Positions 34,119 through 59,516 of a stretch of DNA of 64,000 nucleotides are shown here, piece after piece. The stretch lies in contig CBDCUI010000009.1 of the NCBI GenBank assembly GCA_965222615.1, forward strand, positions 544,001-608,000, in the 5' to 3' direction. The stretch is from Gammaproteobacteria bacterium. GTDB taxonomy: Bacteria > Pseudomonadota > Gammaproteobacteria > UBA4575. The notes under the pieces were generated by a model. The model worked only from the letters and a program-made list of their open reading frames with translations, searched no databases and was not told the DNA's origin. The position numbers and the translations under genes are program-made. Within the stretch, counting starts at the first letter, position 1. Every line of letters starts with the position of its first letter.

Positions 34119-34181
34119 GGTTTGTTTTATAACACGCTGCGAGAGTTTGCTCGCTAACTATCTCATAACTCATGAATCACC

Positions 34182-35492
34182 TCATGTAATTTTTCGTCTT
34201 ATCGGATTACCAAAATTAGGATCGCTACTGATTCTTGAAGCTACAGTTCCTTTCGGGGCGTTGTACCAACCTGGATCGCTATAATCTCCTGGTTTTAAAT
34301 CGTCGCGAACTTTAACTGTAGTAAACATGCCTCCCATTTCAATGTTTCCGTATGGTCCTTTTCCAGTCATCATAGCCAAAGTATTGCGAGGACCTTGGTG
34401 ATGACCCATATCCACATGATCTTGATGTTCCGCCATACCATAGCGACCCATTGCCATAAAACCAGGTAACATTTTTCTAATTTCTTGATCAATACCAGTT
34501 TGATCAACACCCAATGTGTTAGGAATTTCATGCCCCATCGCGTTCATGGTGTGATGTGACATATGACAGTGAAAGGCCCAGTCACCCGGTTCGGCAATAA
34601 ATTCAACATCACGAGTTTGCCCTACACCAATAATCTCAGTGGTTTCGGGACGCCAACGTGATTTAGGCCAACGTCCTCCATCAGAGCCAGTTACCCAAAA
34701 TTGCACACCGTGCATATGCAGGGGATGATTCCACATCGATAGATTGCCCATGCGCACACGCACGCGTTCACCGGTACGTGCAACCACTGGGTCAATAGCT
34801 GGAAACACCTTGCTATTAAAAGTCCACAAGTCAAAATCTTGCAACACAGATGGATCAGGACGATAGGTACCAGGGTGCATAGCCCAGTTATGTGTCAGAA
34901 AACAATAATCACGATCGATAGGGGTCTCTTCGCCATTGCGTGGGTGAATGATAAACATACCCATCATACCCACTCCCAGCTGTGTCATCTCATCTGCATG
35001 CGGGTGATACATATGCGTACCGTGTTGCCTTAACGTGAACTCATATACATAAGTTTCACCAGGACCAATTTGTGGTTGGGTTAAACCACCTACTCCATCC
35101 ATTCCACTTGGTAATAAAATACCATGCCAATGAATCGTGGTATGTTCCTTCAAACAATTAGTCACTAGAATGCGCACACGATCACCTTCAACTGCTTCAA
35201 TAGTTGGACCAGGCGTAGTGCCGTTATAACCCCAACACTTTGCAACACTGCCAGGTGCAAACTCATGTTCAACCTCTTCAGCTACTAAATGGAATTCTTT
35301 TACTCCATTTTTCATTTTGTAGGGCAGCGTCCAGCCATTAAGTGTTCGTACTGGAACATATGATTTACTAACTTTTGTTTGTTTTGATACAGCAGTGGTA
35401 GTCGCAATGGATTCTGCTGTTGCTTTGGATGCTACAGTTGCCGCCAATGCACCTGCACCGGTATAAGTTAAAAATTCTCTTCGTGATGTCAT
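34182..35492 (-). CDS. Tat-exported multicopper oxidase (copper resistance)
   Basis: SRREFL Tat motif after the ATG at 35492; HWHG, MYHPH, HPLHMHG, HCHMSHH copper motifs; Met/His-rich C-terminus. Confidence 0.92.
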   Translation of the reverse strand: MTSRREFLTYTGAGALAATVASKATAESIATTTAVSKQTKVSKSYVPVRTLNGWTLPYKMKNGVKEFHLVAEEVEHEFAPGSVAKCWGYNGTTPGPTIEAVEGDRVRILVTNCLKEHTTIHWHGILLPSGMDGVGGLTQPQIGPGETYVYEFTLRQHGTHMYHPHADEMTQLGVGMMGMFIIHPRNGEETPIDRDYCFLTHNWAMHPGTYRPDPSVLQDFDLWTFNSKVFPAIDPVVARTGERVRVRMGNLSMWNHPLHMHGVQFWVTGSDGGRWPKSRWRPETTEIIGVGQTRDVEFIAEPGDWAFHCHMSHHTMNAMGHEIPNTLGVDQTGIDQEIRKMLPGFMAMGRYGMAEHQDHVDMGHHQGPRNTLAMMTGKGPYGNIEMGGMFTTVKVRDDLKPGDYSDPGWYNAPKGTVASRISSDPNFGNPIRRKIT

Positions 35493-35518
35493 TTTGAATC
35501 TCCTATTCTTTGCTACCA

Positions 35519-37003
35519 TTAGTGATGACTGTGAACATCATGCTCATTTTGTGGTGCTGTGGATTTGCTAGAATTGTTTTGCATGTGGTGCATGGAATGA
35601 TCTACATCATTCGTTTTTGGAGTGATGTATTCTTCAACATTTAATTGTTGTTTACCAACATTTGCACTGCTTGGTAATGTATTGCCTACTGCACGCGTAA
35701 GTTCTGTACGTGCCAACCAATAATCACGTACGACTTCAAGGTAACTTTGATATGCATCGTATTCTTGCTGCTTGGTTTCTAACAGTTCAAATATTCCAAT
35801 CAACATAAAATTTTCTTCTTCTTGTGCGCGCTCTACAACTTCAATACGTGCTGGAATTAGTTTTTCGCGATATATATTTACACGCTCTTTAGTGTTAAGA
35901 GTTGCTGCATGTGCTAAACAAACCTCATTTTCAATTGCAGTATTTAATTGATGAACTTCTGCAATTGCAATTTGTAACTCGGCATTCGCACGTAACTGTT
36001 TATCACGATTTTGTGTAAAAATTGGGATCTCCCACTCTAGAACTGGACCGGTAAGCTCTGCATGATCTGTTTCTATTTCATGCTCAATGCCCACGTCTAA
36101 TTCACCTAACCAACGTGTCCAATTAGTAACACCAACACGATTGGCTAAAACATCGGTACGTGCTGTTGCAGCCACTAAATCAAGTCGTGATTGTTTTGCC
36201 AATTCGATGAGTTCATCGAGATCATCTTCATACTCTAAGGGAATCGGAAGTTGCGCAGGCGAATCCCAAGTGTTTGCTACGGAAAGCCCCAATAAGGCCG
36301 CAAGTTTCGAGCGCTTCTCGTGAGTTTCTGCGTTAGCTTCTAGCGATGCTAGCTGTGATTCGGACGCTGCCGCCCGTTTTTGTGCAAGTTCCCGGGGGCT
36401 TAAATTTCCAGCATCGTAATAGCGCTTTGCTAATTCGAACGAGAGTGAGCCTGCTTTGGCAATTTGTGCATGTAAAGCTGCAGTTTGTTTTGCCGCAACA
36501 AATTGGTAAAAGGCAGCCTCAGTCTCAGCAGCAATATTTAACACTTCCGCACCAACGGATTGCTTCATTGCAGTAAATTCAGCATTTGCCAATCGTTTGC
36601 GTGAAGATAAAGTAAGCAAATCCGTAAATGAAGTTATCAAACCAAATGTTGTCAAATTGCGTTCACCAGACACATTTGAGTCTAATGTCGCAAACGAAAA
36701 AACTGGATTGTGAATACGCCCAGCTTCATACACATCCGCTGCAGCAATCCCCAAACCTGCATAGGTAGTCATTAATTTAGGGTTATTAACTAATGCAATT
36801 CGAATTGCACTTTCCGCAGTCAGTGGTTTTGCCGTTAACGAATCGACAAATTCTTTCCTATTCTTCGATTCCTGAGCATCAATTGGTAAACCTCGCTCAT
36901 GAAGCAATGCATCCACGTCGCTTCGACCCAAGTCTTTTGGAACTGAAGTACATCCGACAAGAAATACAAACGTGATCACAATTGAATATGTAATAAATTT
37001 CAT
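35519..37003 (-). CDS. TolC-family outer-membrane lipoprotein (copper resistance associated)
   Basis: LVGC lipobox, AL.NNP, IPIF, FELL, YWLAR; His-rich tail; paired with the multicopper oxidase. Confidence 0.88.
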   Translation of the reverse strand: MKFITYSIVITFVFLVGCTSVPKDLGRSDVDALLHERGLPIDAQESKNRKEFVDSLTAKPLTAESAIRIALVNNPKLMTTYAGLGIAAADVYEAGRIHNPVFSFATLDSNVSGERNLTTFGLITSFTDLLTLSSRKRLANAEFTAMKQSVGAEVLNIAAETEAAFYQFVAAKQTAALHAQIAKAGSLSFELAKRYYDAGNLSPRELAQKRAAASESQLASLEANAETHEKRSKLAALLGLSVANTWDSPAQLPIPLEYEDDLDELIELAKQSRLDLVAATARTDVLANRVGVTNWTRWLGELDVGIEHEIETDHAELTGPVLEWEIPIFTQNRDKQLRANAELQIAIAEVHQLNTAIENEVCLAHAATLNTKERVNIYREKLIPARIEVVERAQEEENFMLIGIFELLETKQQEYDAYQSYLEVVRDYWLARTELTRAVGNTLPSSANVGKQQLNVEEYITPKTNDVDHSMHHMQNNSSKSTAPQNEHDVHSHH

Positions 37004-37134
37004 AACACTTTCCTAAATATTTATCCATGGCGTCGCTACGCATAGAACGTAACTACAGAAAACTCAAAAAGTATTGCCAAGATCACAAGACGCACAAAAC
37101 GCCAAAGACCAAGGCTATTCGCGACTAAGCGAAT

Positions 37135-37491
37135 TTAGGAAAGAAAAATAGGGGGACGATAAAGCGGTGATAGAGTTACTGAAGTACTTGCGTCGTTATT
37201 AATATTGAAACGATAAGCAAGCTTATGGGGTAAACTTAAACCAGCAGTATTAATAATAGGAACTTGAACCATCAACATATGTAGACATAAGCATGCACCT
37301 TCATCTTCACACTGCATGTTTTGATCCTGTTTTTGATCGTCATGGCATGGCTTTCCATCAACATTAGAAATATCAACAAATTCAATCGAACCCGAAGTAT
37401 TATCTTGCAAACATGGCAGAACCCATGCAGATGCAACTGTTGTATTTGCAACAAAAACAACCATAAATATGTATAATGTCAAATGTTTCAT
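37135..37491 (-). CDS. CopL-like Cys/His-rich small protein
   Basis: Signal peptide, PCH, C...ACLC, terminal YRPPI; directly upstream of the TolC-multicopper oxidase pair. Confidence 0.6.
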   Translation of the reverse strand: MKHLTLYIFMVVFVANTTVASAWVLPCLQDNTSGSIEFVDISNVDGKPCHDDQKQDQNMQCEDEGACLCLHMLMVQVPIINTAGLSLPHKLAYRFNINNDASTSVTLSPLYRPPIFLS

Positions 37492-39111: not shown

Positions 39112-40488
39112 TTACTCATTAGCTACAGATAACATCTCTTCACGACGAGTAAATTTTTCACGCGGCTTGCCTTTAGGTTCACCTGCAGCAACTTCAGCTG
39201 CATCAATTTTTTGCCACTGTGAATAGTTAATGTATTGCACACCATTTTCATCAAGAATTTTATACAAACCTTCTCGACCAGGCTTTTTAGACTCAAACTT
39301 ATTTACGTCTTCAAGCAAAGCATCAACAGATTCCACTGCACAGGCACGGTTAGTGCCGATAATTCCAGATGGGCCACGCTTAATCCAACCTGCCGTATAC
39401 AGACCTGGTATTACATCGCCCCCATGTTCTGTTGTAATACGTCCCGCTTCATTAGGAATCGTACCCCAACGCTTATAAAAAGGGACCCCAGAAATAGCTA
39501 CCCCATTATAACCAATGCTACGAAACAAGATTCCACATTCAATCTCTATGGTTTCGCCAGTACCTTTGGCAGATTGCTTGAACGATTCGCCAGATAATTC
39601 ATTAATCTCCAGCACTACTTTTTCTAAACACCCATCTCCTTCGAGACGTACCGGGCTTTTCAAAAAGGTTGAAATACATATTCGTGGCTTACCTGTATCT
39701 TCAGACTCTGCAAACTTCTGAAAGATTTCAACATTCTTTTTATTGCCACGTCCTTCTTTTGCGGCAAGCTCTTGCTGGCTGGTTTCATTTAACTCTAATT
39801 CCTTAGGATCAATATATGGCCGACAGTTTTCTATCTCTAAAAATTCTTTGAGTTCCTTTGATGCAAACTTTGCTTGAGCGGGTCCACGGCGTCCTATTAC
39901 GTATATTTTTTTAATCTTACTCTCAGCTAATGCATCTAGTGCATGTTGTGCTATATCCGTATGCTTTAGTTCATCAACCGATTTTGCCAAGATTCTTGAC
40001 ACGTCTGCTGCAACGTTGCCTTGCCCAATTACTACTGCAGTTTCATGCGACAAATCAAACGCGCGATCTCGATAATCTGGATGACCGTTGTACCAGCCGA
40101 CAAACTCAGTTGCCGTATAACTTCCGGGCAAATCTTCACCAGGTATGCCCAGCTTGCGGTCTGTCTCTGCTCCACATGTATATATCACTGCATGGTGAGT
40201 ATGCTGTAATTCTTCAGCCTTAATATCTTTACCTACAGTAACATTGCCCACGAAATTAAACTCAGGATTTTCGGCAATTTTTTTATAAACCTCGATGGCT
40301 TGTTTTAATTTTGGATGATCTGGTGCAACACCACTGCGCACCAGACCAAAAGGAGATGGAAGTCGTTCGATTAAATCAATCTCGACGACTAAATCTGATT
40401 TTATTAATGCTTCAGCTGCATAAAATCCACTCGGACCACTTCCAACGATAGCAACTCTTAAAGGATTTGACTCAGTTCCTAAACTCAT
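39112..40488 (-). CDS. Ferredoxin--NADP+ reductase, FprA/adrenodoxin-reductase type
   Basis: GSGPSGFY, PFGLVRSGVAPDH, FVGWYNGHP, GQGNVAAD, GRRGPAQ, GWIKRGPSGIIGTN. Confidence 0.92.
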   Translation of the reverse strand: MSLGTESNPLRVAIVGSGPSGFYAAEALIKSDLVVEIDLIERLPSPFGLVRSGVAPDHPKLKQAIEVYKKIAENPEFNFVGNVTVGKDIKAEELQHTHHAVIYTCGAETDRKLGIPGEDLPGSYTATEFVGWYNGHPDYRDRAFDLSHETAVVIGQGNVAADVSRILAKSVDELKHTDIAQHALDALAESKIKKIYVIGRRGPAQAKFASKELKEFLEIENCRPYIDPKELELNETSQQELAAKEGRGNKKNVEIFQKFAESEDTGKPRICISTFLKSPVRLEGDGCLEKVVLEINELSGESFKQSAKGTGETIEIECGILFRSIGYNGVAISGVPFYKRWGTIPNEAGRITTEHGGDVIPGLYTAGWIKRGPSGIIGTNRACAVESVDALLEDVNKFESKKPGREGLYKILDENGVQYINYSQWQKIDAAEVAAGEPKGKPREKFTRREEMLSVANE

Positions 40489-40560
40489 AACAATTTTCCA
40501 AACTTTTTATTATCTTTATCAAGGAAAATACACAGCTTTAACTGTGCAGTGTACATTTCT

Positions 40561-40688
40561 TAATGAATTTCTGATTTGATGCTGGAGCGAGGCAAAAAAA
40601 TGTTACAAAAGCGGAGTGTACACACTAGTACATGAGCATTTTGGAACATTTTTTTAACAAAGCATCCAGTGCAAATCAGGAATTCCTA
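40561..40688. mobile_element. Family A miniature element (copy A5) between the ferredoxin and reductase genes
   Basis: TIRs GAATTTCTGATTTG / CAAATCAGGAATTC; core GGCAAAAAAATGTT..AAAGCGGAGTGTA..TACATGAGCATTTT..AACATTTTT. Confidence 0.8.
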
Positions 40689-40692
40689 GCAC

Positions 40693-40998
40693 CTAAAAGC
40701 CTAGTTCTGTTTTGCGATCCTCTGCTCCTGGCAACGGATCCATAGGTTCTTCGATTAATGGCAGATCAGGGCATTTTTCTGCATTGATCTCAACCCACTT
40801 CTCTTGGCCTTCAGGTATATCATCTTCTTCATAGATAGCCTCGACTGGACACTCAGGTATGCATGCACTGCAATCGATACATACCTCAGGGTCGATGTAT
40901 AGCATTTCATCGTCATAATGAAAGCATGCAACCGGGCATACAGATACACAATCAGTGAAGCGACAGCCCTTACAATTTTCAGTTACTACTGTAGTCAT
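40693..40998 (-). CDS. Ferredoxin, Azotobacter FdI/FdxA (7Fe) type
   Basis: CxxCxxxxCxxxCP and CxxCxxCxxxCP with an acidic C-terminal extension. Confidence 0.92.
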   Translation of the reverse strand: MTTVVTENCKGCRFTDCVSVCPVACFHYDDEMLYIDPEVCIDCSACIPECPVEAIYEEDDIPEGQEKWVEINAEKCPDLPLIEEPMDPLPGAEDRKTELGF

Positions 40999-41073
40999 GT
41001 GTTGTCTCCTATATTTCTAATGTAATTAGACTACAAATATAAAGCCGTGATAGGTATCCACGTGGAGTATGTA

Positions 41074-41892
41074 CTAGCGCTCAAATAGCAGTACTTCGCC
41101 ACGATTGAGTTCAATCCCGTCTCCGCAAAAGCGTTTAAACTTCCCATTTATATGCACATCATGGATCTCCTCAAATCCATAATCATGCAATTTGGAAAAA
41201 TACAAACGCAAAAATAATGGATGATATGTACACGAATACTCAAAACTAGGCAATATAGGCGCATTTTTTTGAAGCGTTACAATAGTACCTCGCTTCATGC
41301 CTGCACCAGTGCGAATACCTAATTCACCCACAACAATGATTGTACCTGCCAACATGTTAACCCCGGTAAAATCACCAGCATTGCCGCCTATTGCAATAAA
41401 ACCACGTCGCATAGCATGTCCCACCTCATTTTTTGCATTGCCATGGATGAATATTTCGCCGCCTTGAATACCAGCTGATTGGCCACGGAACGCGCTACCC
41501 ACCATATGTCCAGCGTCCCCTTTAATGATGATTCGTCCTCCCGACATTTCCGGCCCAACCCAATCTCCTGCATTACCATTAACCAAAATTTCGCCACCAG
41601 ACATACCTATACCAAGATGCATGCCTACATCACCATCGATGGTGACCTTGCCCTCACTCATACCGGCACCAATTAGCTTAACGTTGCTAACATCGCCTTC
41701 GATGTGAATTTGTGGAGCACCTTGCCCTGTAACCTTGAAAAAATCACCCAACTTAGCCTTTACATTCCCATGCATGACATTCAGATGTTCAACCCCAGAC
41801 TGCGACAAACTGGTGAATGTCGCAGGGCTGATCACTTCCGCCTCTAACGGGACTTCAGGTGATGAATACAGTTCAAGATGGGTAACAGACAT
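41074..41892 (-). CDS. fwdC: Formylmethanofuran dehydrogenase subunit C
   Basis: GxGMxGGxIxxxGxAG beta-helix repeats; LGDFF, GAGMKRGT. Confidence 0.93.
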   Translation of the reverse strand: MSVTHLELYSSPEVPLEAEVISPATFTSLSQSGVEHLNVMHGNVKAKLGDFFKVTGQGAPQIHIEGDVSNVKLIGAGMSEGKVTIDGDVGMHLGIGMSGGEILVNGNAGDWVGPEMSGGRIIIKGDAGHMVGSAFRGQSAGIQGGEIFIHGNAKNEVGHAMRRGFIAIGGNAGDFTGVNMLAGTIIVVGELGIRTGAGMKRGTIVTLQKNAPILPSFEYSCTYHPLFLRLYFSKLHDYGFEEIHDVHINGKFKRFCGDGIELNRGEVLLFER

Positions 41893-41943
41893 ATTTAAAT
41901 TTATTTTTAATTATTTTTTATATCTTTATATTTTTACTATTAT

Positions 41944-42849
41944 TTATATATCTCTGCTTTTGCCATTGGCGATTTCATGTAGATGGAATTTGTACTTACC
42001 TAAATTACCGCCATAATTGCCCGCAGTGATCATTAACGCCCCTTTATCTGCTGCAGCTTGCATGCCACGACGCATTGATTCTTTAATAGCCTCTATGTTT
42101 AAGCCATCGACCACTATTTCGTATACGGCCTCTACATTTTCTGGCACGATCGAATTCTTGGACACTGCGCGTAGCGTAGGGCAGTAGGCATCATTCGTTG
42201 AGGCAATCATGCCTTTATATTTAGAACCCACTTTACTTCCGGACCGTACTAGCCCTTGAGGGAAAGGGAGAAAAACACCTGCTACATCGCGCATGGCATT
42301 TGCTGCGGCCATCGCTGCACGTAATGTAGAGCTCTTGCGCGGTCCAAATATTATTAAATTACCACCACCTACCGCAGGTTGAATCCCAAATTGGTCATCA
42401 ACTAAAAACTCACCTTCCATCACAGGAATTCGCCATGAACGAATACCATCAATCACTTTACTAATTTGATATCCGTCCCCAAAGAAACGTAGCTTGCCAC
42501 CAACAGAAACCGAGTCTTCTGATTCCAACCCATTAAAACAGGCTGTGGTTGGACAAGTCATAACACATTGCCCTATGCGATCGATTAATTGGCCAGCAAT
42601 GGTTTTTGCACTCATGGTGAATAGCAAGACACTGATACCAGGACGTCCATCAGGTGTATCTTCTTCGGGAATTTCACTTTCCACTGCTGCTTCTAATTTG
42701 CAACGGATAACCGATGTTGCAAACCCTGTCATAGATGCTGCTGCTGCACGTGCCCATTGCTTGGTATCTGCAGTAATAATCACACGTGCGCCCCACATTT
42801 CAAAAGCTTCAGCATAAGTATCGACAATTTCTGCTTTTTTAATTTTCAT
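41944..42849 (-). CDS. ftr: Formylmethanofuran--H4MPT N-formyltransferase
   Basis: DTYAEAF, GFATSVI, TPDGRPG, QCVMTCPTTACF, RSGSKVGS, ASTNDAYCPTL, AGNYGG. Confidence 0.96.
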   Translation of the reverse strand: MKIKKAEIVDTYAEAFEMWGARVIITADTKQWARAAAASMTGFATSVIRCKLEAAVESEIPEEDTPDGRPGISVLLFTMSAKTIAGQLIDRIGQCVMTCPTTACFNGLESEDSVSVGGKLRFFGDGYQISKVIDGIRSWRIPVMEGEFLVDDQFGIQPAVGGGNLIIFGPRKSSTLRAAMAAANAMRDVAGVFLPFPQGLVRSGSKVGSKYKGMIASTNDAYCPTLRAVSKNSIVPENVEAVYEIVVDGLNIEAIKESMRRGMQAAADKGALMITAGNYGGNLGKYKFHLHEIANGKSRDI

Positions 42850-42867
42850 ATTACTAGCAAAAATACC

Positions 42868-44514
42868 TTATGCCTTAGGGGCGACAGGAATTATTTCATG
42901 TTTATGTAAGTAGTCATCGCTGATTGCGTAGTTATTAAATTTAACCGAATAATAGTCTTCAAAGAACGGTTCAATTTCTTCAGCAATATCATCATTGTAG
43001 CCAGGCTTGCTATGCAGAAGCTTGCCTTTATGATCGGTAGCAAATTCATGATCTTTAATCACCGTTACACCATCTTTAATAACATAGCGTGGTGCATTAA
43101 ACATCGCTTCTTTATCTTCTTCTTCGGTATACACTGTAATATCGGCATCAGCCCCTACACCAAGCTGACCTTTGTTACTCAGACCCAATGCCCGTGCTGG
43201 ACCTGCACGAGTGATAATAGCGATTTCATTTAACGTGTACTCGCGATCTAATTCTCGCAAACTGGTTTTATCGATCGCTTTTTGATTTACCTTGCTTAAC
43301 GCTTCTTTACGATAGGCACTATCCATTAAAAGTTTTATTAGTTTTGGATAACTCATGAAAGATCCACCATTGGGATGGTCGGTGGACAACAATACTCTCC
43401 ACGGATCTTTAGAATGTAGAAATAACTCCAAACCCATTGCCCATTGCAAAGCATGGGTATATATATGATCTTGATAGGTAAATGGAATAATTCCACAGCC
43501 ACTTTCACATTCTGTATCTGCATTTATCCACTTATTAAATTTCACATTACGCAACATCCATGCTAATGGCGCATCTGCCGTCATGGCAGTCGCTTTTCCA
43601 AACATGACTTGTCCTACGTCAGCAGTGATGTTTTCGTTATCGTTTATATAATCGATTATTGAACGCACACCAGATATGGCATTTTTGTTTAGTTCGCCGC
43701 CAAAACTATGAAACTGAATGTGCGCCATGTGCACGCGTCGACCTTGTGCAGCTTTCATGGTGTCTAGCGTTGTACTGATGTTGCCGCTGTGGCCTAAATT
43801 ATTGCAGTGAATATGTGGTGGATGCGGTAAACCTAATTCATGTGCAGCTTCAATAAAACTTTCTATAACATGGTTTGGCGTAATGTCGTAATAATCAATA
43901 TTATCGTTTACATCGGTTATATTGGCATTCTTGCGACCTTTCCATAGCTCATCACTACCTACATTGACAAGCTTAAGCGTGTAGGCATGCACTGAATCAA
44001 TCCACCATGCGATGGCTTCCTTAAACTCTTTTTTACGCCCTTCTTTTAAAAGCTTGTATAGGAAAGCATTGTTACCCAGCAATACGTAAAAACCTTTATC
44101 AATCACAGGGGTATCATCAAGTTCCTCTAAGCTGTGCCTGGCGGTAATGGGAGGAACCGCTGCTTCCATCGCAGTTGTGTAACCCATCGTGGCATAACGA
44201 TAGCCCGTTGCAAATGTAGAAGGTACCACACCGCCCGTTCCAGAGCGGGTAACTGCAGTTTTGGGGTGCACATCTAAACGGTGGTCTTCCGGTTGCAATT
44301 TACGCGCTAGGTTTACTTTTGCACCAGCTATATGACAATGAATATCCACTGCACCCGGCATAACTACCATGCCATGTGCATCAATTTTCTTAGCTGAGCT
44401 TGAAACGGAATCGACGATCTTGCCATCTCGAACAAAGATGTCTTTTATTTCCCCGTCAATGTTATTTGCAGGGTCGTAAACACGACCATTCACAATTTTT
44501 AGTTCAGATGACAT
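42868..44514 (-). CDS. fwdA: Formylmethanofuran dehydrogenase subunit A (amidohydrolase)
   Basis: DIHCHIAG, GYRYATMGYTT, HIHCNNLG, HIQFHS, QWAMGLE, STDHPNGG, ITRAGPA. Confidence 0.95.
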   Translation of the reverse strand: MSSELKIVNGRVYDPANNIDGEIKDIFVRDGKIVDSVSSSAKKIDAHGMVVMPGAVDIHCHIAGAKVNLARKLQPEDHRLDVHPKTAVTRSGTGGVVPSTFATGYRYATMGYTTAMEAAVPPITARHSLEELDDTPVIDKGFYVLLGNNAFLYKLLKEGRKKEFKEAIAWWIDSVHAYTLKLVNVGSDELWKGRKNANITDVNDNIDYYDITPNHVIESFIEAAHELGLPHPPHIHCNNLGHSGNISTTLDTMKAAQGRRVHMAHIQFHSFGGELNKNAISGVRSIIDYINDNENITADVGQVMFGKATAMTADAPLAWMLRNVKFNKWINADTECESGCGIIPFTYQDHIYTHALQWAMGLELFLHSKDPWRVLLSTDHPNGGSFMSYPKLIKLLMDSAYRKEALSKVNQKAIDKTSLRELDREYTLNEIAIITRAGPARALGLSNKGQLGVGADADITVYTEEEDKEAMFNAPRYVIKDGVTVIKDHEFATDHKGKLLHSKPGYNDDIAEEIEPFFEDYYSVKFNNYAISDDYLHKHEIIPVAPKA

Positions 44515-44664
44515 GTTTTATTTATTTTATTCTAACGAAGGGGTATTTTTTTGATTATTTAAGATACTTACTTTATCTACGTTTTTATAATTTTATTATC
44601 TCAGCAGCATTTGGTGTAATGTGAATGAACTCCTTCCTACTTCACAATAAACACAACAGGATAA

Positions 44665-46068
44665 TTAGGCTGCGATTCTGGCTTTCTTACCTTTCAATAA
44701 CTGCTTAACTCGATCACGAATACCTTCTAAAACTTGTTGGTCAGTTGGATAATGTGATTCAAATGCTGGACGTAGTGTAATTGGCACATCATCCATTCTA
44801 TATACTGTCCCACCAGTGTTAATTCCGTACGTTGCTACAGCAAATCGAACTTTAGCAATACTGCTAGTAACCGTATCTTTTGTATCCAATGAGATGATAG
44901 GAATCTTTTTCATATGCTCGATCGCGGCTTTAGGAAAATTGGAAGCCGGATCGGATGCGATAATCATGGCTGCATCCGTTTCACCACGAGATAACACATC
45001 GGTTGTGGTGAACTCACCTGGATTAAATCTCGGATAACCTCGATTGAAATTAACCCCAAAAGGATATCCTGTTTGCCAAGAGACCACATTGTCGGCACCT
45101 GTTACATTGCCATGACCACGCACGGGCTTGGCTACAAAGTGAGTAAACTCGTTTAAATCTGCTGCCAAAGACAATAAAGCACCTGAATTAAAATGGCGAC
45201 CCCGCGTCATGGTCAAGCCCATACCAAAAAACAACACGCCGTATTGACAATTTTTCATGCGATGAACTAAGTCATTTAACATTTCACGCGATACACCAGT
45301 CTCTTCTTCAATATTGCTTGCAATCTTCTTGCCTTTCACTAATGCGCGCAAAGCCCATAACACCTCGAAATCTTTACCTGGTTTTATTTGCACAAAAATA
45401 TCAGCAACCGGAGTGCTTGGTGTTTTGCGTACATCGACAAGCACTACCGTGCGGTCTTTTTTACCATTTGGTATAAACATACCTTTAGGGGTAACTGCAT
45501 AACGAGTGAAATGTCTTGGATGAGATTCTGCTGGATTGCCTCCCCAATAAATAACCAGATCAGCACGATTTTTAATCTCACCTAAGGTCGCCGTGCTTTC
45601 TCCTACGCCTTGGAATGCCATTCCAGAAGGACCATGACAAACAGAAGTTGTGGTGTCGATATTTCCATTTATCGTATCCATAATGTCGACCGCAACTCGT
45701 TGTGCTTCACATGGTGAATCACTTAAACCATATGTGATGGGAAACTTTGCATTTACCAAAATTTTTGCAGCGGCCTCAATGCCTTCTTCCAAGCTGGCTT
45801 TCTTACCATCAATGAGTACTTCCGGACGGGTATCTAGCGTATGCTCATAAAACCATGCACGCCCTAACACACAGGCTCTTTTTGCTTTGGTTATGCGATG
45901 CTCATCTAGATCGACCGTGAGTTCCATATCATCACAAACACAACCACAAAATGTACACGTAGCATCTTTAACAATTTTGATGTTCTTTTTCTGATCTGGC
46001 TTTTTAGGCCCAGGTTTTTTTTCAGTTGATGTAGTTGTTTCAGTCATAAAAAATATTCCAACTATCAA
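44665..46068 (-). CDS. fwdB: Formylmethanofuran dehydrogenase subunit B (intact Mo/W-bisPGD and 4Fe-4S motifs)
   Basis: CTFCGCVCDD...ACVLG Fe-S ligands, TSVCHGP catalytic Cys-His, TLGEIKNRAD, NPAESHPRH, RGHGNVTG, WQTGYP, GTVYRMD; probable start is the ATG at 46047. Confidence 0.92.
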   Translation of the reverse strand: MIVGIFFMTETTTSTEKKPGPKKPDQKKNIKIVKDATCTFCGCVCDDMELTVDLDEHRITKAKRACVLGRAWFYEHTLDTRPEVLIDGKKASLEEGIEAAAKILVNAKFPITYGLSDSPCEAQRVAVDIMDTINGNIDTTTSVCHGPSGMAFQGVGESTATLGEIKNRADLVIYWGGNPAESHPRHFTRYAVTPKGMFIPNGKKDRTVVLVDVRKTPSTPVADIFVQIKPGKDFEVLWALRALVKGKKIASNIEEETGVSREMLNDLVHRMKNCQYGVLFFGMGLTMTRGRHFNSGALLSLAADLNEFTHFVAKPVRGHGNVTGADNVVSWQTGYPFGVNFNRGYPRFNPGEFTTTDVLSRGETDAAMIIASDPASNFPKAAIEHMKKIPIISLDTKDTVTSSIAKVRFAVATYGINTGGTVYRMDDVPITLRPAFESHYPTDQQVLEGIRDRVKQLLKGKKARIAA

Positions 46069-46079
46069 TAATTACTTAA

Positions 46080-46424
46080 TTACCTAGCCTTAGAGACTAC
46101 GACTTCCATGTGCTTCGACAATGGCATACCAGTACCTGCCGTATCAGAAGCCATTAATTGACTCGACGGTGGGCCGTATGGAATAAATATCACACCTTGC
46201 GGCAAATCCGCATCCTTTTTTGAAATACAACTGACTACTGTCTGCCCAACTTCTGATTTCAAACGTATTTTATCGCCATCCTTAAGTTTAAGACGCCTCA
46301 TATCTTTTTCGTTCAATTCCGCGGTGGAGGTAACTTTTTTGTATTCATCCTTTAGTTTACCTTCATTTAATGACGTACCCTGCGATTGCGAACGCCCCGG
46401 TATCAATATCATGGTCTCCGCCAT
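46080..46424 (-). CDS. fwdD: Formylmethanofuran dehydrogenase subunit D (molybdopterin dinucleotide-binding)
   Basis: GRSQSQG, LN..DM..L....GD.I, G.IFIPYGP, T.GTGMP.SK motifs; first gene of the operon. Confidence 0.88.
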   Translation of the reverse strand: MAETMILIPGRSQSQGTSLNEGKLKDEYKKVTSTAELNEKDMRRLKLKDGDKIRLKSEVGQTVVSCISKKDADLPQGVIFIPYGPPSSQLMASDTAGTGMPLSKHMEVVVSKAR

Positions 46425-46749
46425 CTAGAATTCCTTTACATTACATATAGTAATAGGCTCAACTTAATAAATTCGTTTGCGAGCGAGAGAAAATGGAGAA
46501 GCGGTCAGAATCCATCAGTGATAGAACTGCCAGTATCTACCGAATCCAGCTAACTTAGTCGGTAGTGTGTGCTAACTCTGCAGACTGTGAATACTACCAT
46601 ATTATACGGAATATTCTCTTATCTACCCTTCCAAATTAGATACCTCAACCGGACTTGGTTACTAAAGTGAACAAGAATTAAACAGCATTTGGCTAGCCTC
46701 ACCAGGATGAAATTCGTTACACTCCCATCTAATATTACATTTGAAAATT

Positions 46750-46897
46750 AAGGAAGCTCTGATTTATTAATGAAATGTCTGGGACAAGGCAAAAAATGTT
46801 GAGAAAGTGGAGTGTATATTAGGAATACATGAACATTTTGAGACATTTTTTAACGCCCTAAAAGATTAATTAGGGCAGAATAAATCAGAGTTTCCAT
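46750..46897. mobile_element. Family A miniature element (copy A6)
   Basis: TIRs GGAAGCTCTGATTTATT / AATAAATCAGAGTTTCC; shared core. Confidence 0.82.
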
Positions 46898-46923
46898 AAC
46901 TATTATCTCTGGAGGACCCCATC

Positions 46924-47196
46924 ATGCCTAAGTACATCATTGAACGCGAAATTCCTGGTGCTGGAAATTTGACTACCGCTGAGTTGCAAGGAATCTCACA
47001 AAAATCGTGCAGTATTTTACAAAATATGGGTCCGCAAATTCAGTGGGTAGAAAGCGTAGTAACCGATGACAAAGTTTACTGCACCTATATTGCTCCTAAT
47101 GAAGAAGAGATTCGTAAACATGCCGATGAAGGTGGATTCCCTGCAAACAAGATTGCAGAAATAAAGGGGATGATTGACCCTACTACAGCAGAATAA
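46924..47196 (+). CDS. DUF4242 domain protein
   Basis: MPKYIIEREIPGAG, QWVES.V..DKVYC.Y.AP, H...GGFPAN; GGAGG SD. Confidence 0.88.
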   Translation: MPKYIIEREIPGAGNLTTAELQGISQKSCSILQNMGPQIQWVESVVTDDKVYCTYIAPNEEEIRKHADEGGFPANKIAEIKGMIDPTTAE

Positions 47197-47609: not shown

Positions 47610-47900
47610 TTAAGGACTACCGAAGATACAGCCTGACTTCGTTATGACTATAGGAAAATCACCAAGATCTCGCATAACTTGCGCAGTATTATAATTTTCT
47701 AACATTGTTTTTACTTCTTCAGCTTGAAGGCCTTCGATAGACTCATGCATAACACGTAAAACATAAGTTTTAGTGTTTTCCGTTACGTTAAAATTTATGC
47801 TTTCCTGCATTTCATGTTCCCACTGCTCAATGATCGCATTAACAAAATTTGCTGCAAGATAGGCTTGGATAGAACTGACTATATCAATAGCATAAGACAT
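47610..47900 (-). CDS. Hypothetical protein, last gene of the mtoX-associated run
   Basis: 96-aa ORF starting 11 bp after the tlpA stop, same strand. Confidence 0.6.
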   Translation of the reverse strand: MSYAIDIVSSIQAYLAANFVNAIIEQWEHEMQESINFNVTENTKTYVLRVMHESIEGLQAEEVKTMLENYNTAQVMRDLGDFPIVITKSGCIFGSP

Positions 47901-47911
47901 TCAAAACATTT

Positions 47912-48565
47912 TTAGTTTGGAAGCATTCGCTCGAATACCTTTGGAATCTCACAGTTCCATCCTATTGATTCTTTAAGATAGGCAAAAAAAGACTTCTTCT
48001 CTTCTGATTTTATTTGGTCTGTTTGCGTCCCCTCATTGCTAGCCATTCGCTCATAACCAACTAGCAATCCATCTATGAAATTTATCATCTCTGGTGAATC
48101 CCATTCACGCTCACCAACGGCCTTATAAACTATCTTTCCATCAGGATCGATTAAATAGGTAGTTGGCAAACCTCGCACTTCCCAACTCGCTAGGCTCATA
48201 TCCTTATCTAAAAGAATCGTAAACGAGACAGGTACAGACTTTAAGAACTTTTTGACACCAGCCAAACTAGGACCCACGTGGACACCAACTACTTCTAGCC
48301 CACGGTTATTAAGTTGTTTGTAGAGATTATCCATTGCGGGCATCTCTTCTCTACACGGCGCACACCAGGTTGCCCAAAAGTTGAGTAATACGAATCTCCC
48401 TTTGAAATCTTCCAAACTAATTTTTCCACCTTTAACTGAATCGAGATTAAATCCATTTGCGCGAGGCGTACCTGCAACAGGATCCATAGGCTCAACCGCA
48501 GCTGCAATATCCATAACCATTAGCATACATACAGCAAACAAAAAGAAACTCTTTAAATTAAGCAT
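47912..48565 (-). CDS. TlpA/ResA-like thiol:disulfide oxidoreductase
   Basis: NFWATWCAPCREEMP, GLPTTYLIDPDG, GEREWD. Confidence 0.92.
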   Translation of the reverse strand: MLNLKSFFLFAVCMLMVMDIAAAVEPMDPVAGTPRANGFNLDSVKGGKISLEDFKGRFVLLNFWATWCAPCREEMPAMDNLYKQLNNRGLEVVGVHVGPSLAGVKKFLKSVPVSFTILLDKDMSLASWEVRGLPTTYLIDPDGKIVYKAVGEREWDSPEMINFIDGLLVGYERMASNEGTQTDQIKSEEKKSFFAYLKESIGWNCEIPKVFERMLPN

Positions 48566-48649
48566 TGTTGCATTTCCCTCTAGCTGGCAATTTACACTAT
48601 TAATCTATATGGCTTGGATCAAAATTTTAGCAATTAGTTCGTCACTGAT

Positions 48650-49213
48650 TTAGTGATTATACCGAGATACTTTGAGGTCTTTACTATCTAAAAGTGCCCG
48701 TAAAAAATCGATCATAAAAGGCGAGTTCCATACACGTGTACCCACAGCACGATAACGTATATTCCCATCAGGCCCAACAATAAATGATGTAGGTAATACT
48801 GGTATGCCCCATTCACCCAGCTGCAACTCCATATCCACTAATACTGGATAGGTAATTTCATTAAGCTCGACAACAGAATGTACCCCATCGATATTATCAC
48901 CGGCGTGGATAGAAAGAATCATGAATTTATTGCTATCAAGTAATTCATAGGCACTCTGCAATGTAGTCATTTCACTTTTACATACATTGCATGACATCGC
49001 CCAAAAATTCACCAATACAAACTTACCACGAAAGTCATTCAGCTCATGTTGTTCGCCGGCTATATCAAATAACTTAAAGTTCTGTGCTTGTACATTAGGG
49101 GGATACGGATCCATTAAACGTCCTTCATCCGCATTGAGGCCAAATGCAAAAGAATAGAGTATTAGCTGAACAAAAAAATGTACAAGTGTATTTGTATTGA
49201 TTTTATTTAACAT
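48650..49213 (-). CDS. TlpA-like redoxin
   Basis: NFWAMSCNVCKSEM CxxC, LPTSFIV. Confidence 0.88.
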   Translation of the reverse strand: MLNKINTNTLVHFFVQLILYSFAFGLNADEGRLMDPYPPNVQAQNFKLFDIAGEQHELNDFRGKFVLVNFWAMSCNVCKSEMTTLQSAYELLDSNKFMILSIHAGDNIDGVHSVVELNEITYPVLVDMELQLGEWGIPVLPTSFIVGPDGNIRYRAVGTRVWNSPFMIDFLRALLDSKDLKVSRYNH

Positions 49214-49265
49214 CTAGTACTTTAATCTGTTCCCGCGTGTCCGAAAGTTTCTGCTACAGCTAACT

Positions 49266-50618
49266 CTAGTACTCAAGCTTATTGTCATGCGCCCAATTTG
49301 GATCATCCGCACTCAAATCTCCGATTGGTGCAGCAAAGGCATCCGCTACCAAAGTGGCAATATTACCTGCTGTCAAAGAATCTAGAAAAGCAAGTAAATC
49401 ATCCACTTCTTCTTCACTAAGGTCTATTGGCTTAATTAAAGGGCTTAATAATTCATTTTCAATACCGCCCTGCATATAAAACTCAATTACTTCACGCAAA
49501 GTCTGCAAAGAGCCATCATGCATATAAGGTGCGGTTAAAGCGACATTCCTAAGTATAGGGGTACGATACTTCCAACGGTCATTAGGATTTTCTGTAATCT
49601 CATACAAGCCTAGATCATTTTCTTTTGGCTTTGAAACTGCTTGAATCTTGCTCATATCCATATCCGCATATATGCCTGGGGCTAACTGCACCCTTTTCTT
49701 CTTCGGTACAATCCCCATCGAAGTTTGATAGCCCAAACCTGTATTATGCAATTTGTTATCGGTAAATAATGCATAGTCATCTTGGATTAAATGACAAGAA
49801 CTACAAGCACCCTTACCGGTAAATATTTTGAAACCTCTTTTCACTTGCTCACTTACAGCGTTTTCTTCTTTACCAAAATACCATCGATCAAACGGTGAGT
49901 TAGCAGCGTTAAGTACCCGCTGGTAACTTGCTAACGCCATGCCAATTGTCTCCATTGATGCACTGCGTCCATCAAAAGCGGTTTCAAAAAGCCCATCATA
50001 CTCATTTATTGCGTTAACTTTATTAATTACGTAACCAATAGAAGGATTAGCCATTTCATTTCGTGCTAAAAGTGGCGCCCATACTTGTTGTTCTAGTGTT
50101 GATTCACGTCCATCATGGAAAAGCTTTGTTAAATATGCAGTGTTATAAATGGTTGGAGAATTACGTCTAACAGAACGACCCTCTACACCCACTGCGGTTT
50201 GTATTTCGTTATTAGTAAAACCTTGCTCTGGAATATGGCAAATAGCACATGAGAACGTATCATTAATTGACAAACGTCGATCAAAAAATAGCTTTCTACC
50301 TAATGCAACTTTTTCTTTGGTAATTGGGTTATCTACTGGTAAAGGCACAGCAGGCAACCCTAATGGCGGATTAGTAATAAACTCTAGAAGGTTGGCTTCT
50401 TTGCCTGTACGCTTTTGTATATCTAGCGTTCTAGTCTGGTAATCTGGCGAATCATATCCTTCTTTAACATCACCTGGACCATACAAAGCCTTATTTTCCG
50501 ACTGAGAATCTTCGGTTCTACTTTGCAAATCACTTGATAATATCAATACCATTAACACTGAAGTAACTAATACAGTGTTGGAAAAAACTGGTATGAGTTG
50601 TTTAATAATTTGTCTCAC
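49266..50618 (-). CDS. mauG: MauG-like diheme cytochrome c peroxidase (TTQ biogenesis for MtoX)
   Basis: Two heme motifs CAICH and CSSCH, LGRKLFFD, RNSPT, TP.LRNVALTAPYMHDG; position in the mtoX-sco-mauG cluster. Confidence 0.85.
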   Translation of the reverse strand: MRQIIKQLIPVFSNTVLVTSVLMVLILSSDLQSRTEDSQSENKALYGPGDVKEGYDSPDYQTRTLDIQKRTGKEANLLEFITNPPLGLPAVPLPVDNPITKEKVALGRKLFFDRRLSINDTFSCAICHIPEQGFTNNEIQTAVGVEGRSVRRNSPTIYNTAYLTKLFHDGRESTLEQQVWAPLLARNEMANPSIGYVINKVNAINEYDGLFETAFDGRSASMETIGMALASYQRVLNAANSPFDRWYFGKEENAVSEQVKRGFKIFTGKGACSSCHLIQDDYALFTDNKLHNTGLGYQTSMGIVPKKKRVQLAPGIYADMDMSKIQAVSKPKENDLGLYEITENPNDRWKYRTPILRNVALTAPYMHDGSLQTLREVIEFYMQGGIENELLSPLIKPIDLSEEEVDDLLAFLDSLTAGNIATLVADAFAAPIGDLSADDPNWAHDNKLEY

Positions 50619-51358
50619 CCTTCAATATCCGCTTTTAATAAACCTTCTTCCATAAGTAAGGTTTTAATGTCCGTTGTAACCAATTCATCATGCAAAAAAG
50701 ACACACTATATTCTTGTCGAATCGCTTTTGATCGATCAATTAAAAATGCTCGCAAGACGTGCGCCATAGATCCCGTATAGTTACCTTGATCATCGTATTC
50801 CTTTATCACTAACTGCCCATATCGCTTGATGATGGGTTCTAAGGCTTTTTCAGAAGCGGTAGTTAAAAATAACCACTGTGGATCACCTTCGTCAAAACCT
50901 GCAGCATATAGTCTCATCACTTCGGGAGTATCATGCTCAGGATCAAAGCTGATACTTATTAAGCGTATTGTATTAGCAAGTTCTGGGTCATGCTTAAACC
51001 GTTCTTTAACCTTATAGAACACAGCTGTAGCAAGTGGACATCCATTTAGATCGGTACAACTACTGTATATAAAAGTTAGTAATACGATTTTGTCATTAAG
51101 TAAATCACTTAATTCGAGTTCTTCCCCATTAACACCGAGTACTGTGCCTCCACCTGCGGTATTTATCTTTGGTAGTTCATACGAACCTGGCTTAGGCACC
51201 TCATAAGGCAAGGTTGCTACCCAGCCATCTGCGGCAATCATGACTTCAGCCTGCGCAGCACGAGAACCTGGCAAAGGGGTATCCTCGTCGACATTACCTC
51301 CGCATGCCAATACAAGCACCGATAGCAGACAAATCAATATAAAATTTAGAATTTTCAT
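50615..51358 (-). CDS. SCO1/SenC family copper chaperone (lipoprotein)
   Basis: LACGG lipobox, FIYSSCTDLNGCP, SISFDPEHDTP, conserved His in MAHVLR. Confidence 0.88.
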   Translation of the reverse strand: MKILNFILICLLSVLVLACGGNVDEDTPLPGSRAAQAEVMIAADGWVATLPYEVPKPGSYELPKINTAGGGTVLGVNGEELELSDLLNDKIVLLTFIYSSCTDLNGCPLATAVFYKVKERFKHDPELANTIRLISISFDPEHDTPEVMRLYAAGFDEGDPQWLFLTTASEKALEPIIKRYGQLVIKEYDDQGNYTGSMAHVLRAFLIDRSKAIRQEYSVSFLHDELVTTDIKTLLMEEGLLKADIEG

Positions 51359-51374
51359 CTATGAAAACTTTGCA

Positions 51375-51410
51375 GAAACAACAAGGCCGCCTCGAGGGCG
51401 GCCCTGTTTC
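51375..51410 (-). terminator. GC-rich hairpin between mtoX and sco
   Basis: GGCCGCC-loop-GGCGGCC followed by TTGTTGTTTC on the minus strand. Confidence 0.65.
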
Positions 51411-51469
51411 AACAATTTAAAGTCCTAGCTTTAGACTACTACTTACATCACTGTAACAGAGCCTGCACC

Positions 51470-56134: not shown

Positions 56135-56151
56135 TAAAGTAAATTTATCAA

Positions 56152-59060: not shown

Positions 59061-59516
59061 CTAGTTACCACATTTACCTTCACCACACTTGCCTTCTTTG
59101 CCTTTACTTCCACCGCATTTACCTTCGCCACACTTGCCTTCCCCACACTTACCTTCACCGCTTTTACCATTTATTTCTGCAGCAGTAAGCTCACCATCAT
59201 TATTCGCATCCATACTAGCAAAGCCATGATCCCATTCTGTCCAACTAATACTGCCGTCGCCATTTTTATCCATCATTTTAACAGCCAAATTTCCACCACA
59301 CTTACCTTCTCCGCATTTGCCTTCCCCACACTTTCCTTCTCCGCATTTGCCTTCTCCACACTTTCCTTCTTTACCCGCCACCATATAGCCAGAAGATAAT
59401 TCGGTCATTTGAAAAGGATTGTCGCCTGCATTTTCTGCACTGATACTAAAAGAACTGGTTGCAAGTACTGCCCCAACTGCAGCAACTAAAGGTTTTAATT
59501 CCGATTTGTGTTTCAT
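59061..59516 (-). CDS. EGKCG-repeat low-complexity protein (HvfA/bufferin-type precursor) with two EF-hand loops
   Basis: Signal peptide, NPF...L.SGY, ten EGKCG repeats in two blocks, DKNGDGSISWTE and DANNDGELTAAE loops. Confidence 0.82.
   Translation of the reverse strand: MKHKSELKPLVAAVGAVLATSSFSISAENAGDNPFQMTELSSGYMVAGKEGKCGEGKCGEGKCGEGKCGEGKCGGNLAVKMMDKNGDGSISWTEWDHGFASMDANNDGELTAAEINGKSGEGKCGEGKCGEGKCGGSKGKEGKCGEGKCGN

Follow-up and report, generated by a model that had tools for sequence, protein, structure and literature searches.

In the textbook scheme of bacterial methylotrophy, the tetrahydromethanopterin (H4MPT) pathway ends with the formyltransferase/hydrolase complex Fhc, which sets formate free, and separate formate dehydrogenases (FDH) then follow. 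A gammaproteobacterial stretch of 64,000 nucleotides (nt) from the lineage UBA4575 (contig CBDCUI010000009.1, positions 544,001 to 608,000; here called the window) carries a locus which raises the question whether the formyl group can also leave the pathway by another enzyme. The locus, fwdD-fwdB-fwdA-ftr-fwdC-fdx-fprA, consists of seven co-oriented open reading frames (ORFs) on the minus strand at 46424-39112 of the window, and encodes a formylmethanofuran dehydrogenase (FwdABCD), a formyltransferase (Ftr), a ferredoxin (Fdx) and a reductase of the FprA type. The comparisons reported below indicate that the enzyme is likely a working dehydrogenase which runs oxidatively. With somewhat less confidence, it is probable that FwdABCD-Ftr oxidises formyl-methylofuran derived from formyl-H4MPT to CO2, the electrons being passed via ferredoxin and FprA to NADP+. 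The cofactor content, the direction of the reaction, the docking of the ferredoxin and NADP+ as final acceptor are all read from the genes.

The full-length FwdB matched archaeal FwdB chains in the PDB (9SFI_Q, E 8.5e-115; 8RJA_B, 1.4e-113; 5T5I_B, 2.2e-110), whereas FhcB of Methylorubrum extorquens (6S6Y_B) gave a weak match (E 8.5e-15) confined to residues 264-458, in the C-terminal part. The three motifs quoted in the original prediction are present in the translation, CTFCGCVCDD from residue 38, TSVCHGP from residue 141 and RGHGNV from residue 317; all align to the corresponding stretches of archaeal FwdB, TSVCHGP being the active-site stretch, and the [4Fe-4S] motif C38-x2-C41-x3-C45...C66 aligns to that of 5T5I_B. 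The catalytic residues of Methanothermobacter wolfeii FwdB are Cys118, His119 and Arg288 (PMC6926001), and their counterparts in the window protein are Cys144, His145 and Arg317. A scan of one genome per species gave 80 related loci, with FwdB 72-93% identical to that of the window and, by their titles, nearly all from metagenome-assembled Gammaproteobacteria. Cys38, Cys41, Cys45, Cys66, Cys144, His145 and Arg317 were found to be invariant in 78 of 78 relatives with overall identities of 72-94%.

The same genome contains a second cluster, fhcB-A-D-C (C9:485897-490551), which has no fwdD. The FhcB encoded there (G000:C9:485897-487157, equal to L098:7898-9157) is 25% identical to FwdB, its residues at the positions of Cys144, His145 and Arg317 being Lys, Met and Ser, and the Cys-His pair and the Arg are lacking in all 21 FhcB-type proteins from the related loci. 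In the structural account of the M. extorquens complex, Fhc is described as having lost Cys118, His119, Arg288, the [4Fe-4S] domain and FwdD, and as releasing formate (PMC6926001); the window cluster retains these residues, the domain and FwdD. If an Fhc is defined by a B subunit without the Cys, His and Arg and by the absence of FwdD, the other cluster of the genome is one, and the window complex, judged by its residues and gene content, is not, because its B subunit keeps the three residues and FwdD is present. As a separate observation, the genome's own FhcB retains C-x2-C-x3-C, and the four [4Fe-4S] cysteines are kept in 20 of the 21 gammaproteobacterial FhcB-type proteins despite the loss of the Cys-His pair and the Arg. 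These proteins may therefore still bind a cluster, unlike M. extorquens FhcB, from which the cluster domain is described as wholly absent (PMC6926001).

A grouping of FwdB with the cofactor-less FhcB had been named at the outset as a ground for giving up the original prediction. The E values of the PDB matches and the motif loss in the genome's own FhcB both speak against such a grouping, and so does a phylogenetic tree (FastTree, LG+gamma, midpoint root) of 158 sequences over 433 columns, composed of 16 FwdB-type rows, 21 FhcB-type rows and 121 unlabelled representatives of 400-620 residues. The 21 FhcB-type rows formed one clade (support 1.0) and the 16 FwdB-type rows, which were gammaproteobacterial together with four Chloroflexi-titled ones, formed another (support 1.0), the two clades lying on opposite sides of the midpoint root. 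Residue calls were kept for the 16 FwdB-type and 21 FhcB-type rows from the loci and dropped for the 121 representatives, whose columns looked shifted in the fast alignment. The tree has no labelled archaeal tips and therefore says nothing about the donor lineage. Beyond the gammaproteobacterial clade, the nearest FwdB clusters are at most 53% identical; these outside clusters (P0125, P0126, P0131, P0132, P0145, P0156, P0256, P0206) include FwdD-FwdB fusions of 570-606 residues, and in one outside form of 640 residues, residues 343-396 constitute an inserted two-cluster ferredoxin domain.

The remaining subunits present the same affinity. FwdA matched 5T5I_A with E 2.3e-142 and FhcA (6S6Y_A) with 5.5e-102, and FwdC matched 5T5I_C with 2.6e-48 and FhcC (6S6Y_C) with 6e-40. 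The separate FwdD of the original prediction was borne out by the Pfam family Molydop_binding, PF01568 (47 bits, cut-off 26.8), and by matches to PDB FwdD chains (2KI8_A, E 2.4e-19; 9SFI_S, 5.7e-16; 5T5I_D, 4.6e-12; range to 6.1e-09); moreover, 78 of the 80 related loci have fwdD ahead of fwdB, and the remaining two start at a contig edge. By sequence, all four Fwd subunits are closer to archaeal Fwd than to M. extorquens Fhc. In FwdA, His59, His61, Lys181, His234, His236, His262, His265 and Asp379 are invariant in 73 of 73 proteins; they are candidate ligands of the binuclear metal site, assigned by position and not by structure.

At the level of gene order and sequence, the complex resembles Fhc in two respects. 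The genome has three copies of Ftr, and the gene for the cluster copy is flanked by fwdA and fwdC, which is where fhcD stands in fhc operons. The alignment of FwdC with archaeal FwdC (four chains) ends at residues 217-229, whereas that with M. extorquens FhcC covers residues 21-268 and that with the genome's own FhcC residues 1-270; the C-terminus of the window protein aligns to FhcC residues 219-261 and not to archaeal FwdC. In the structures, the beta-hairpin of FwdC is replaced in this part of FhcC by two helices (residues 216-246; PMC6926001), and it is the part by which FhcD attaches in Fhc. The embedded ftr together with the Fhc-like end of FwdC suggests that Ftr is held in the complex as a subunit, in the manner of Fhc. 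The evolution of Fhc from Fwd has been proposed to involve loss of the dehydrogenase, recruitment of the formyltransferase and a methylofuran site (PMC6926001), and the features of the window proteins would fit a complex which has taken the second of these steps and not the first.

The bearing of the complex on Fhc and FDH can be followed in the 56 genomes of the window's order, which form one family with 11 genera. Scores with the FwdB model TIGR03129 are bimodal in these genomes, FwdB-type proteins reaching about 500 bits and FhcB-type proteins 220-260 bits. Sixteen genomes of 1.6-2.2 Mb (G002-G004, G043-G055) are Fwd-only, no FhcB-type protein being found at E<=1e-20, and Mch and the cluster Ftr are kept in all 16; in one of them (G052, locus L103) the fwd cluster lies about 5 kb from the genes of beta-RFAP synthase, Mch and MptN. 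Because the FhcB type is absent while Mch and Ftr are kept, the Fwd-type complex is, on gene content, the only enzyme able to carry the formyl group onward in these genomes. An FdsA-type FDH alpha subunit was found above the cut-off in 38 of the 40 genomes which hold an FhcB type, the other two being 77% and 82% complete, and in one of the 16 Fwd-only genomes (G051). In 10 of the 16 no FDH-alpha match reached E<=1e-60. G002 and G053 have 550-bit matches which adjoin nirB and look like assimilatory nitrate reductases, and matches below the cut-off were also obtained in G048, G044 and G054. The model of the metal-free NAD-dependent FDH, NF005750, gave no hit in the 56 genomes, a blank which proves little since the control was silent as well. 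From this distribution it appears that the system can replace the formate-releasing bacterial Fhc together with FDH. A complex producing only formate, which was to count against the original prediction, seems unlikely, since Mch is kept even in the 10 Fwd-only genomes that gave no FDH-alpha match.

The ferredoxin matches the Azotobacter vinelandii ferredoxin I (FdI) chains with E 4.4e-28 over residues 4-94, every Cys being matched, and FwdF with E 1e-06 only. Its cysteine pattern, C-x2-C-x4-C-x3-C-P ... C-x2-C-x2-C-x3-C-P with an FdI-like C-terminal extension, contains nine cysteines that are invariant in 60 of 60 proteins. A second FdxA-like gene, 53% identical, is located elsewhere in the genome (C8:986819-987097), so the cluster ferredoxin is, as far as the gene complement indicates, a dedicated paralogue. 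FprA, present as a single copy in the genome, matches Mycobacterium tuberculosis FprA (1LQT, E 2.6e-112, residues 9-455) and adrenodoxin reductase (1CJC, 1.9e-99). Its N-terminal G-x-G-x-x-G and its GRRGP, which we take to be the NADP 2'-phosphate site of the adrenodoxin reductase family, are invariant in 55 of 55 proteins.

Among the 80 related loci, fdx is the next gene after fwdC in 59 of the 64 which extend at least 500 nt beyond fwdC, and fdx and fprA both follow in 50 of the 54 which extend at least 2200 nt, so that the synteny expected in related genomes was found. Median gap lengths are 80 nt between fwdC and fdx and 89 nt between fdx and fprA (range 17-619 for the latter), and in many of the loci fprA is followed directly by an fhcBADC cluster. 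Across the order, FwdB-type proteins are above the cut-off in 37 of the 56 genomes, to which a contig-edge fragment in G011 is added, and FprA (E<=1e-30) occurs in 38, exactly the FwdB-type holders including G011; at the same threshold it was found in none of the 18 FhcB-only genomes. In the otherwise Fhc-only genus g9, one genome (G026) is the sole holder both of a FwdB type and of FprA, the latter being 70% identical to that of the window and about 4 kb from FwdB, which suggests that the fwd-fdx-fprA module travels as a unit.

The association extends to the class, sampled evenly by 401 genomes, for which the FwdB type was set at >=494 bits because FhcB-type proteins there reach 330-410 bits, above the TIGR03129 cut-off. 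Twenty genomes from 11 families have a FwdB type and 19 of them have FprA, the exception (G065) being 75% complete. When the unpublished genomes among the 20 (G094, G196, G350, G362) are excluded, 16 genomes from 9 families are left, 15 of them with FprA. Eight other genomes of the sample hold FprA: in four it shares a contig with a Fwd/Fhc homologue, and in four it is 42-48% identical. In family f204 (L104) the order is fdx-fprA-fwdD-B-A-ftr-(IS1182 transposase)-fwdC, and this different gene order means that the linkage survives rearrangement. This locus, G414:C33:122000-140000, has an IS1182-family transposase between ftr and fwdC, and its FwdB, FwdA and FwdC matches are split over several frames, either by decay or by assembly error; it may be a decaying copy.

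According to the mechanism which we propose, Ftr would transfer the formyl group from formyl-H4MPT to the furan carrier and FwdA would hydrolyse the formyl-furan. The formate would be kept inside the complex and oxidised to CO2 in FwdB, at a Mo/W-bis-pterin site over which FwdD would form the cap. From there the two electrons would leave through the [4Fe-4S] cluster of FwdB to the dedicated 7Fe ferredoxin, and the flavin adenine dinucleotide (FAD) of FprA would pass them to NADP+, the net reaction being formyl-H4MPT + NADP+ -> CO2 + H4MPT + NADPH. The NADP+/NADPH couple lies at about -320 mV and the [3Fe-4S] cluster of FdI at roughly -420 mV. The couple CO2 + methanofuran (MFR)/formyl-MFR has been placed at -0.53 V (PMC11656701). 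On these figures the oxidative path would be downhill at each step, by about 210 mV overall.

The original prediction had left room for the system to work in reverse, NADPH reducing ferredoxin through FprA and Fwd fixing CO2 on the furan carrier to feed formyl-H4MPT and assimilation. The chemistry of Fwd is reversible, its direction being ascribed to the electron partner in the account of the F420-coupled enzyme (PMC11493965), and the genome has serine-cycle genes and a third Ftr beside FolD. In this direction NADPH would stand some 210 mV above the -530 mV couple, with which even H2 (-414 mV) is considered incompatible (PMC11656701), so that the path is infeasible unless an energy-coupled module drives it, and the cluster contains no bifurcating or otherwise energy-coupled module. 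The genome already possesses RuBisCO, and the Fwd-only genomes need an exit from formyl-H4MPT. Reverse running is therefore very unlikely; the other half of the same statement, oxidation to CO2 with electrons passed via ferredoxin to NADP+, is supported.

A number of observations weigh against oxidation through ferredoxin and FprA as proposed here. Given the gap of 204 nt between fdx and fprA, which contains a weak hairpin and a weak promoter-like site, fprA may or may not share a transcript with fdx in this genome. Both genes are missing from four Chloroflexi-titled loci and from L063, where H4MPT genes follow instead, and L035 has fdx without fprA. FwdD remains under the NCBI archaeal FwdD model NF042908 (82 bits against a cut-off of 175), and Fdx under the FdxA equivalog NF045490 (111.2 bits against 135). 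The co-occurrence counts come from kin of one family and thus stand for few independent events. ModA (TIGR01256) was not found in the genome, in a search that left out TupA and WtpA. Four haem-copper oxidase genes and a methanethiol oxidase mark the host as an aerobe, and archaeal Fwd enzymes are oxygen-sensitive. Some of these points would suit an alternative in which Fwd works and ferredoxin accepts the electrons, FprA not being the main outlet: other consumers would then drain the ferredoxin, and FprA would act as a valve or in an NADPH-fed reactivation of oxygen-exposed clusters or of the metal site. The promoter-like site of its own before fprA, the retention of fdx alone in L035, the aerobic host and the donation of electrons from NADPH to ferredoxin by mycobacterial FprA-type enzymes (PMC6208970) are all in line with such a role. 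It is nevertheless considered unlikely, since FprA accompanies the FwdB type in 38 of 38 genomes of the order and 19 of 20 of the class sample, almost always within a few kb, and is the sole copy in the genome.

To the same group of contrary points belongs L105 (G258), where the genes following fdx-fprA are those of an Fhc-like cluster. The B subunit of that cluster is 29% identical to FwdB, with C-H-G after a deletion of four residues and Gly for Arg317, and no FwdD was found there by tblastn. This arrangement, and the fact that FdxA-type ferredoxins are common housekeeping proteins, could be taken to mean that fdx and fprA are unrelated housekeeping genes placed beside fwd by chance. The linkage, seen in two gene orders and, within the class sample, in no fewer than 11 families, the absence of FprA from the 18 FhcB-only genomes and the separate FdxA paralogue already disfavour this view, which hardly retains any probability. 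Lastly, of the three Fwd-only genomes outside the order, which come from two other families, two (G107, G308) keep an FdsA-type FDH alpha and G453 is without it; the loss of FDH is thus not general. These two genomes, the fhc-like placement of ftr within the operon and the resemblance of the end of FwdC to FhcC would also be compatible with a second Fhc-like formyltransferase/hydrolase which releases formate, the intact motifs being inherited and devoid of redox function. Against this stand the invariance of the Cys, His, Arg and cluster cysteines in 78 of 78 relatives, the Cys, His and Arg being lost in the true FhcB paralogues, the retention of FwdD in 78 of 80 loci, and the 10 Fwd-only genomes with no FDH-alpha match; we regard this explanation as highly improbable.

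The oxidative, ferredoxin- and FprA-coupled complex proposed here can be placed between several known systems. With archaeal FwdABCD(FG) of M. wolfeii (5T5I) it shares all four subunits A-D, the [4Fe-4S] cluster motif, the Cys-His pair, the Arg and the FwdA ligand residues. It differs in that the cluster contains no FwdF/G or FwdE, ftr lies inside the operon and the end of FwdC is Fhc-like, and further in the aerobic bacterial host, the likely oxidative direction and the FdI-type ferredoxin with FprA in place of polyferredoxins. With M. extorquens FhcABCD (6S6Y; PMC6926001) it has in common the bacterial H4MPT/methylofuran context and the order B-A-ftr(D)-C. In FwdABCDGI of Candidatus Ethanoperedens thermophilum (8RJA), a flavin-dependent reductase replaces FwdF and the oxidation of formyl-MFR reduces coenzyme F420; the direction is described as set by the electron partner and not by the active site (PMC11493965). 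By analogy, the window system would likewise release CO2 and use a flavin reductase to reach a two-electron carrier of higher potential. It departs from the Ethanoperedens enzyme, which has FwdI and FwdG bound and F420 as acceptor, in having, as candidate partners, a separate FdI-type ferredoxin and an FprA-type enzyme and, presumably, NADP+ as acceptor. In the known FprA/adrenodoxin reductase systems, electrons flow from NADPH through ferredoxin to P450s and other acceptors; here they would run towards NADP+, and the Fdx/FprA pair differs from the known ones in being tied to a low-potential dehydrogenase.

The caution about novelty in the original prediction was apt. Single-cell genomes of Actinobacteria from a serpentinising spring have been described with fwdDBA-ftr-fwdC, without fwdE/F/G, and with a FwdB that has the [4Fe-4S] domain and the catalytic Cys (PMC7325909), and 149 bacterial FwdB hits have been ascribed to transfer from Archaea (PMC10100899). 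The relevant passages of these two reports contain no ferredoxin/FprA module, no co-occurrence data and no replacement of Fhc and FDH. Searches of open-access papers and bioRxiv, supplements excluded, gave no work joining formylmethanofuran dehydrogenase with FprA, ferredoxin-NADP reductase or a 7Fe ferredoxin, and open-access literature and bioRxiv yielded no paper on the co-occurrence of Fwd and FprA or on replacement of Fhc and FDH. Public records label these genes 'formylmethanofuran dehydrogenase subunit B', and all named members of the close clusters are metagenome-assembled genomes.

It is tempting to speculate further that an oxygen-tolerant five-subunit FwdABCD-Ftr with tethered methylofuran forms, together with the 7Fe ferredoxin and FprA, a CO2-producing formyl-H4MPT:NADP+ oxidoreductase, that it is an intermediate between Fwd and Fhc which makes Fhc and FDH dispensable, and that it is the main C1 exit in a sizeable set of uncultured gammaproteobacterial methylotrophs; this wider picture is tentative and falls somewhat short of an even chance. 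If the proposal is true, it would provide a second, formate-free exit from the formyl group to CO2 and NADPH and would alter the models of many uncultured methylotrophs. The complex would then be the missing step on the trajectory from Fwd to Fhc (PMC6926001), one at which the formyltransferase has joined and the dehydrogenase has not been lost. It would make available an aerobe's Fwd whose electron chain is simple and soluble, which is sought for CO2-converting biocatalysis. It would also extend the theme of the electron partner setting the direction of Fwd, known from the F420-coupled enzyme (PMC11493965).

All seven ORFs of the run described in the original prediction exist at the positions given in Table 1 and were identified by profiles or PDB matches. 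FwdB scored 512.8 bits with TIGR03129 (cut-off 327.8), FwdA 707.9 bits with TIGR03121 (cut-off 392.75), Ftr 426.6 bits with NF002554 (cut-off 297) and 415.7 bits with TIGR03119, and FwdC 268.7 bits with TIGR03122 (cut-off 130.65); the FprA protein has no NCBIfam equivalog. The statement that a small FdI-type ferredoxin and an FprA-type reductase take the place of FwdF/G holds for the cluster genes: profile searches of the cluster, the rest of the genome not being included, revealed no FwdF/FwdG polyferredoxin, and the cluster has no FwdE gene. An alternative start of fwdB, an ATG at 46047 and seven codons in, would give 460 residues, in agreement with the public 460-residue call. In gene order, the intergenic gaps measure 11 (or 32), 150, 18, 51, 75 and 204 nt. 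Upstream of fwdD, one weak promoter-like site (46930-46902) and no terminator (46425-46923) were found. No Rfam family reached the gathering score in the window and none was found at E<=1 in 46300-47000, and there was no molybdenum-cofactor (Moco) riboswitch.

Table 1. Features of the fwd locus and the formate dehydrogenase genes, with positions in the window
Feature	Position	Strand	Description
fwdD	46424-46080	-	114 aa; separate 'fourth domain' predicted to cap the metal-pterin site
fwdB	46068-44665	-	467 aa from TTG; metal-pterin subunit with N-terminal [4Fe-4S] motif
fwdA	44514-42868	-	548 aa; amidohydrolase subunit, formyl-furan hydrolysis/condensation
ftr	42849-41944	-	301 aa; formylmethanofuran:H4MPT formyltransferase
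fwdC	41892-41074	-	272 aa; beta-helix subunit, C-terminal part Fhc-like
fdx	40998-40693	-	101 aa; FdI-type ferredoxin, 7Fe pattern
fprA	40488-39112	-	458 aa; adrenodoxin-reductase/FprA-type FAD enzyme, predicted NADP(H):ferredoxin reductase
fdx-fprA gap	40489-40692	-	204 nt; weak hairpin 40548-40529, weak promoter-like site 40522-40493
Region 5' of fwdD	46425-46923	-	intergenic; divergent SCO4226-like gene begins at 46924
NAD-type formate dehydrogenase	54407-58905	+	fused NuoE/NuoF-like subunit and FdsA-type alpha subunit (TIGR01591, 762.1 bits)

The genome (3.10 Mb, 99.79% complete, 39% G+C) has genes for Fae, Mch, MptN and beta-RFAP synthase and MfnD-/MfnF-like genes at 8-20 kb from the window, and it contains a pyrroloquinoline quinone-dependent (PQQ) methanol dehydrogenase, a Form-I-like RuBisCO and serine-cycle genes; pmoA was not found in the genome. 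Among the cofactor genes, MobA scored 236.4 bits and an FdhD-like protein 134.9 bits, just under the cut-off. The NAD-type FDH 8 kb from the fwd cluster means that the organism has both exits for the formyl group. On this gene content it reads as an aerobic non-methanotrophic methylotroph equipped with both Fwd and Fhc plus FDH.

The third, divergent Ftr lies outside the window (G000:C7:45290-46213, equal to L097:7291-8214; TIGR03119, 295.8 bits), between 5-formyl-tetrahydrofolate cyclo-ligase and FolD, and is 39% identical to the cluster Ftr. Beyond it and FolD are genes for a serine-glyoxylate-type aminotransferase, a malyl-CoA-lyase-like protein, malate-CoA ligase and a hydroxypyruvate-reductase-like protein. 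Of the 56 genomes of the order, 55 have a gene of this class, scoring about 285-298 bits. The enzyme might shuttle formyl groups between the folate pool and the furan/H4MPT pool with no free formate being formed.

Directly upstream of the fwd cluster region, the minus-strand genes at 47610-52849 encode the methanethiol oxidase MtoX (NF052453, 761.5 bits), a SCO1/SenC protein, a MauG/MbnH-like di-haem enzyme and two thiol-disulfide oxidoreductases, and together look like a methanethiol-oxidation operon. On the other side, 81 nt past fprA, there is a CHR-family 'chromate' transporter (39030-37681, minus strand), which has this place behind fprA in 10 of the 80 loci, each from a close relative; a tie to the uptake of the group-6 oxyanions molybdate and tungstate is pure speculation. 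Further along, at 33195-37491 (minus strand), lies a copper-handling set with a CopA-like multicopper oxidase, an outer-membrane efflux protein and a weak CopL-like ORF, which an ABC-2 exporter pair adjoins. An ORF of 151 residues at 59061-59516 (minus strand) weakly matches the HvfA precursor of oxazolone/thioamide metallophores, a class of ribosomally synthesised and post-translationally modified peptides (RiPPs), with 47.4 bits, below the cut-off, and the KCGExKCG repeat domain with 45.6 bits, above the cut-off.

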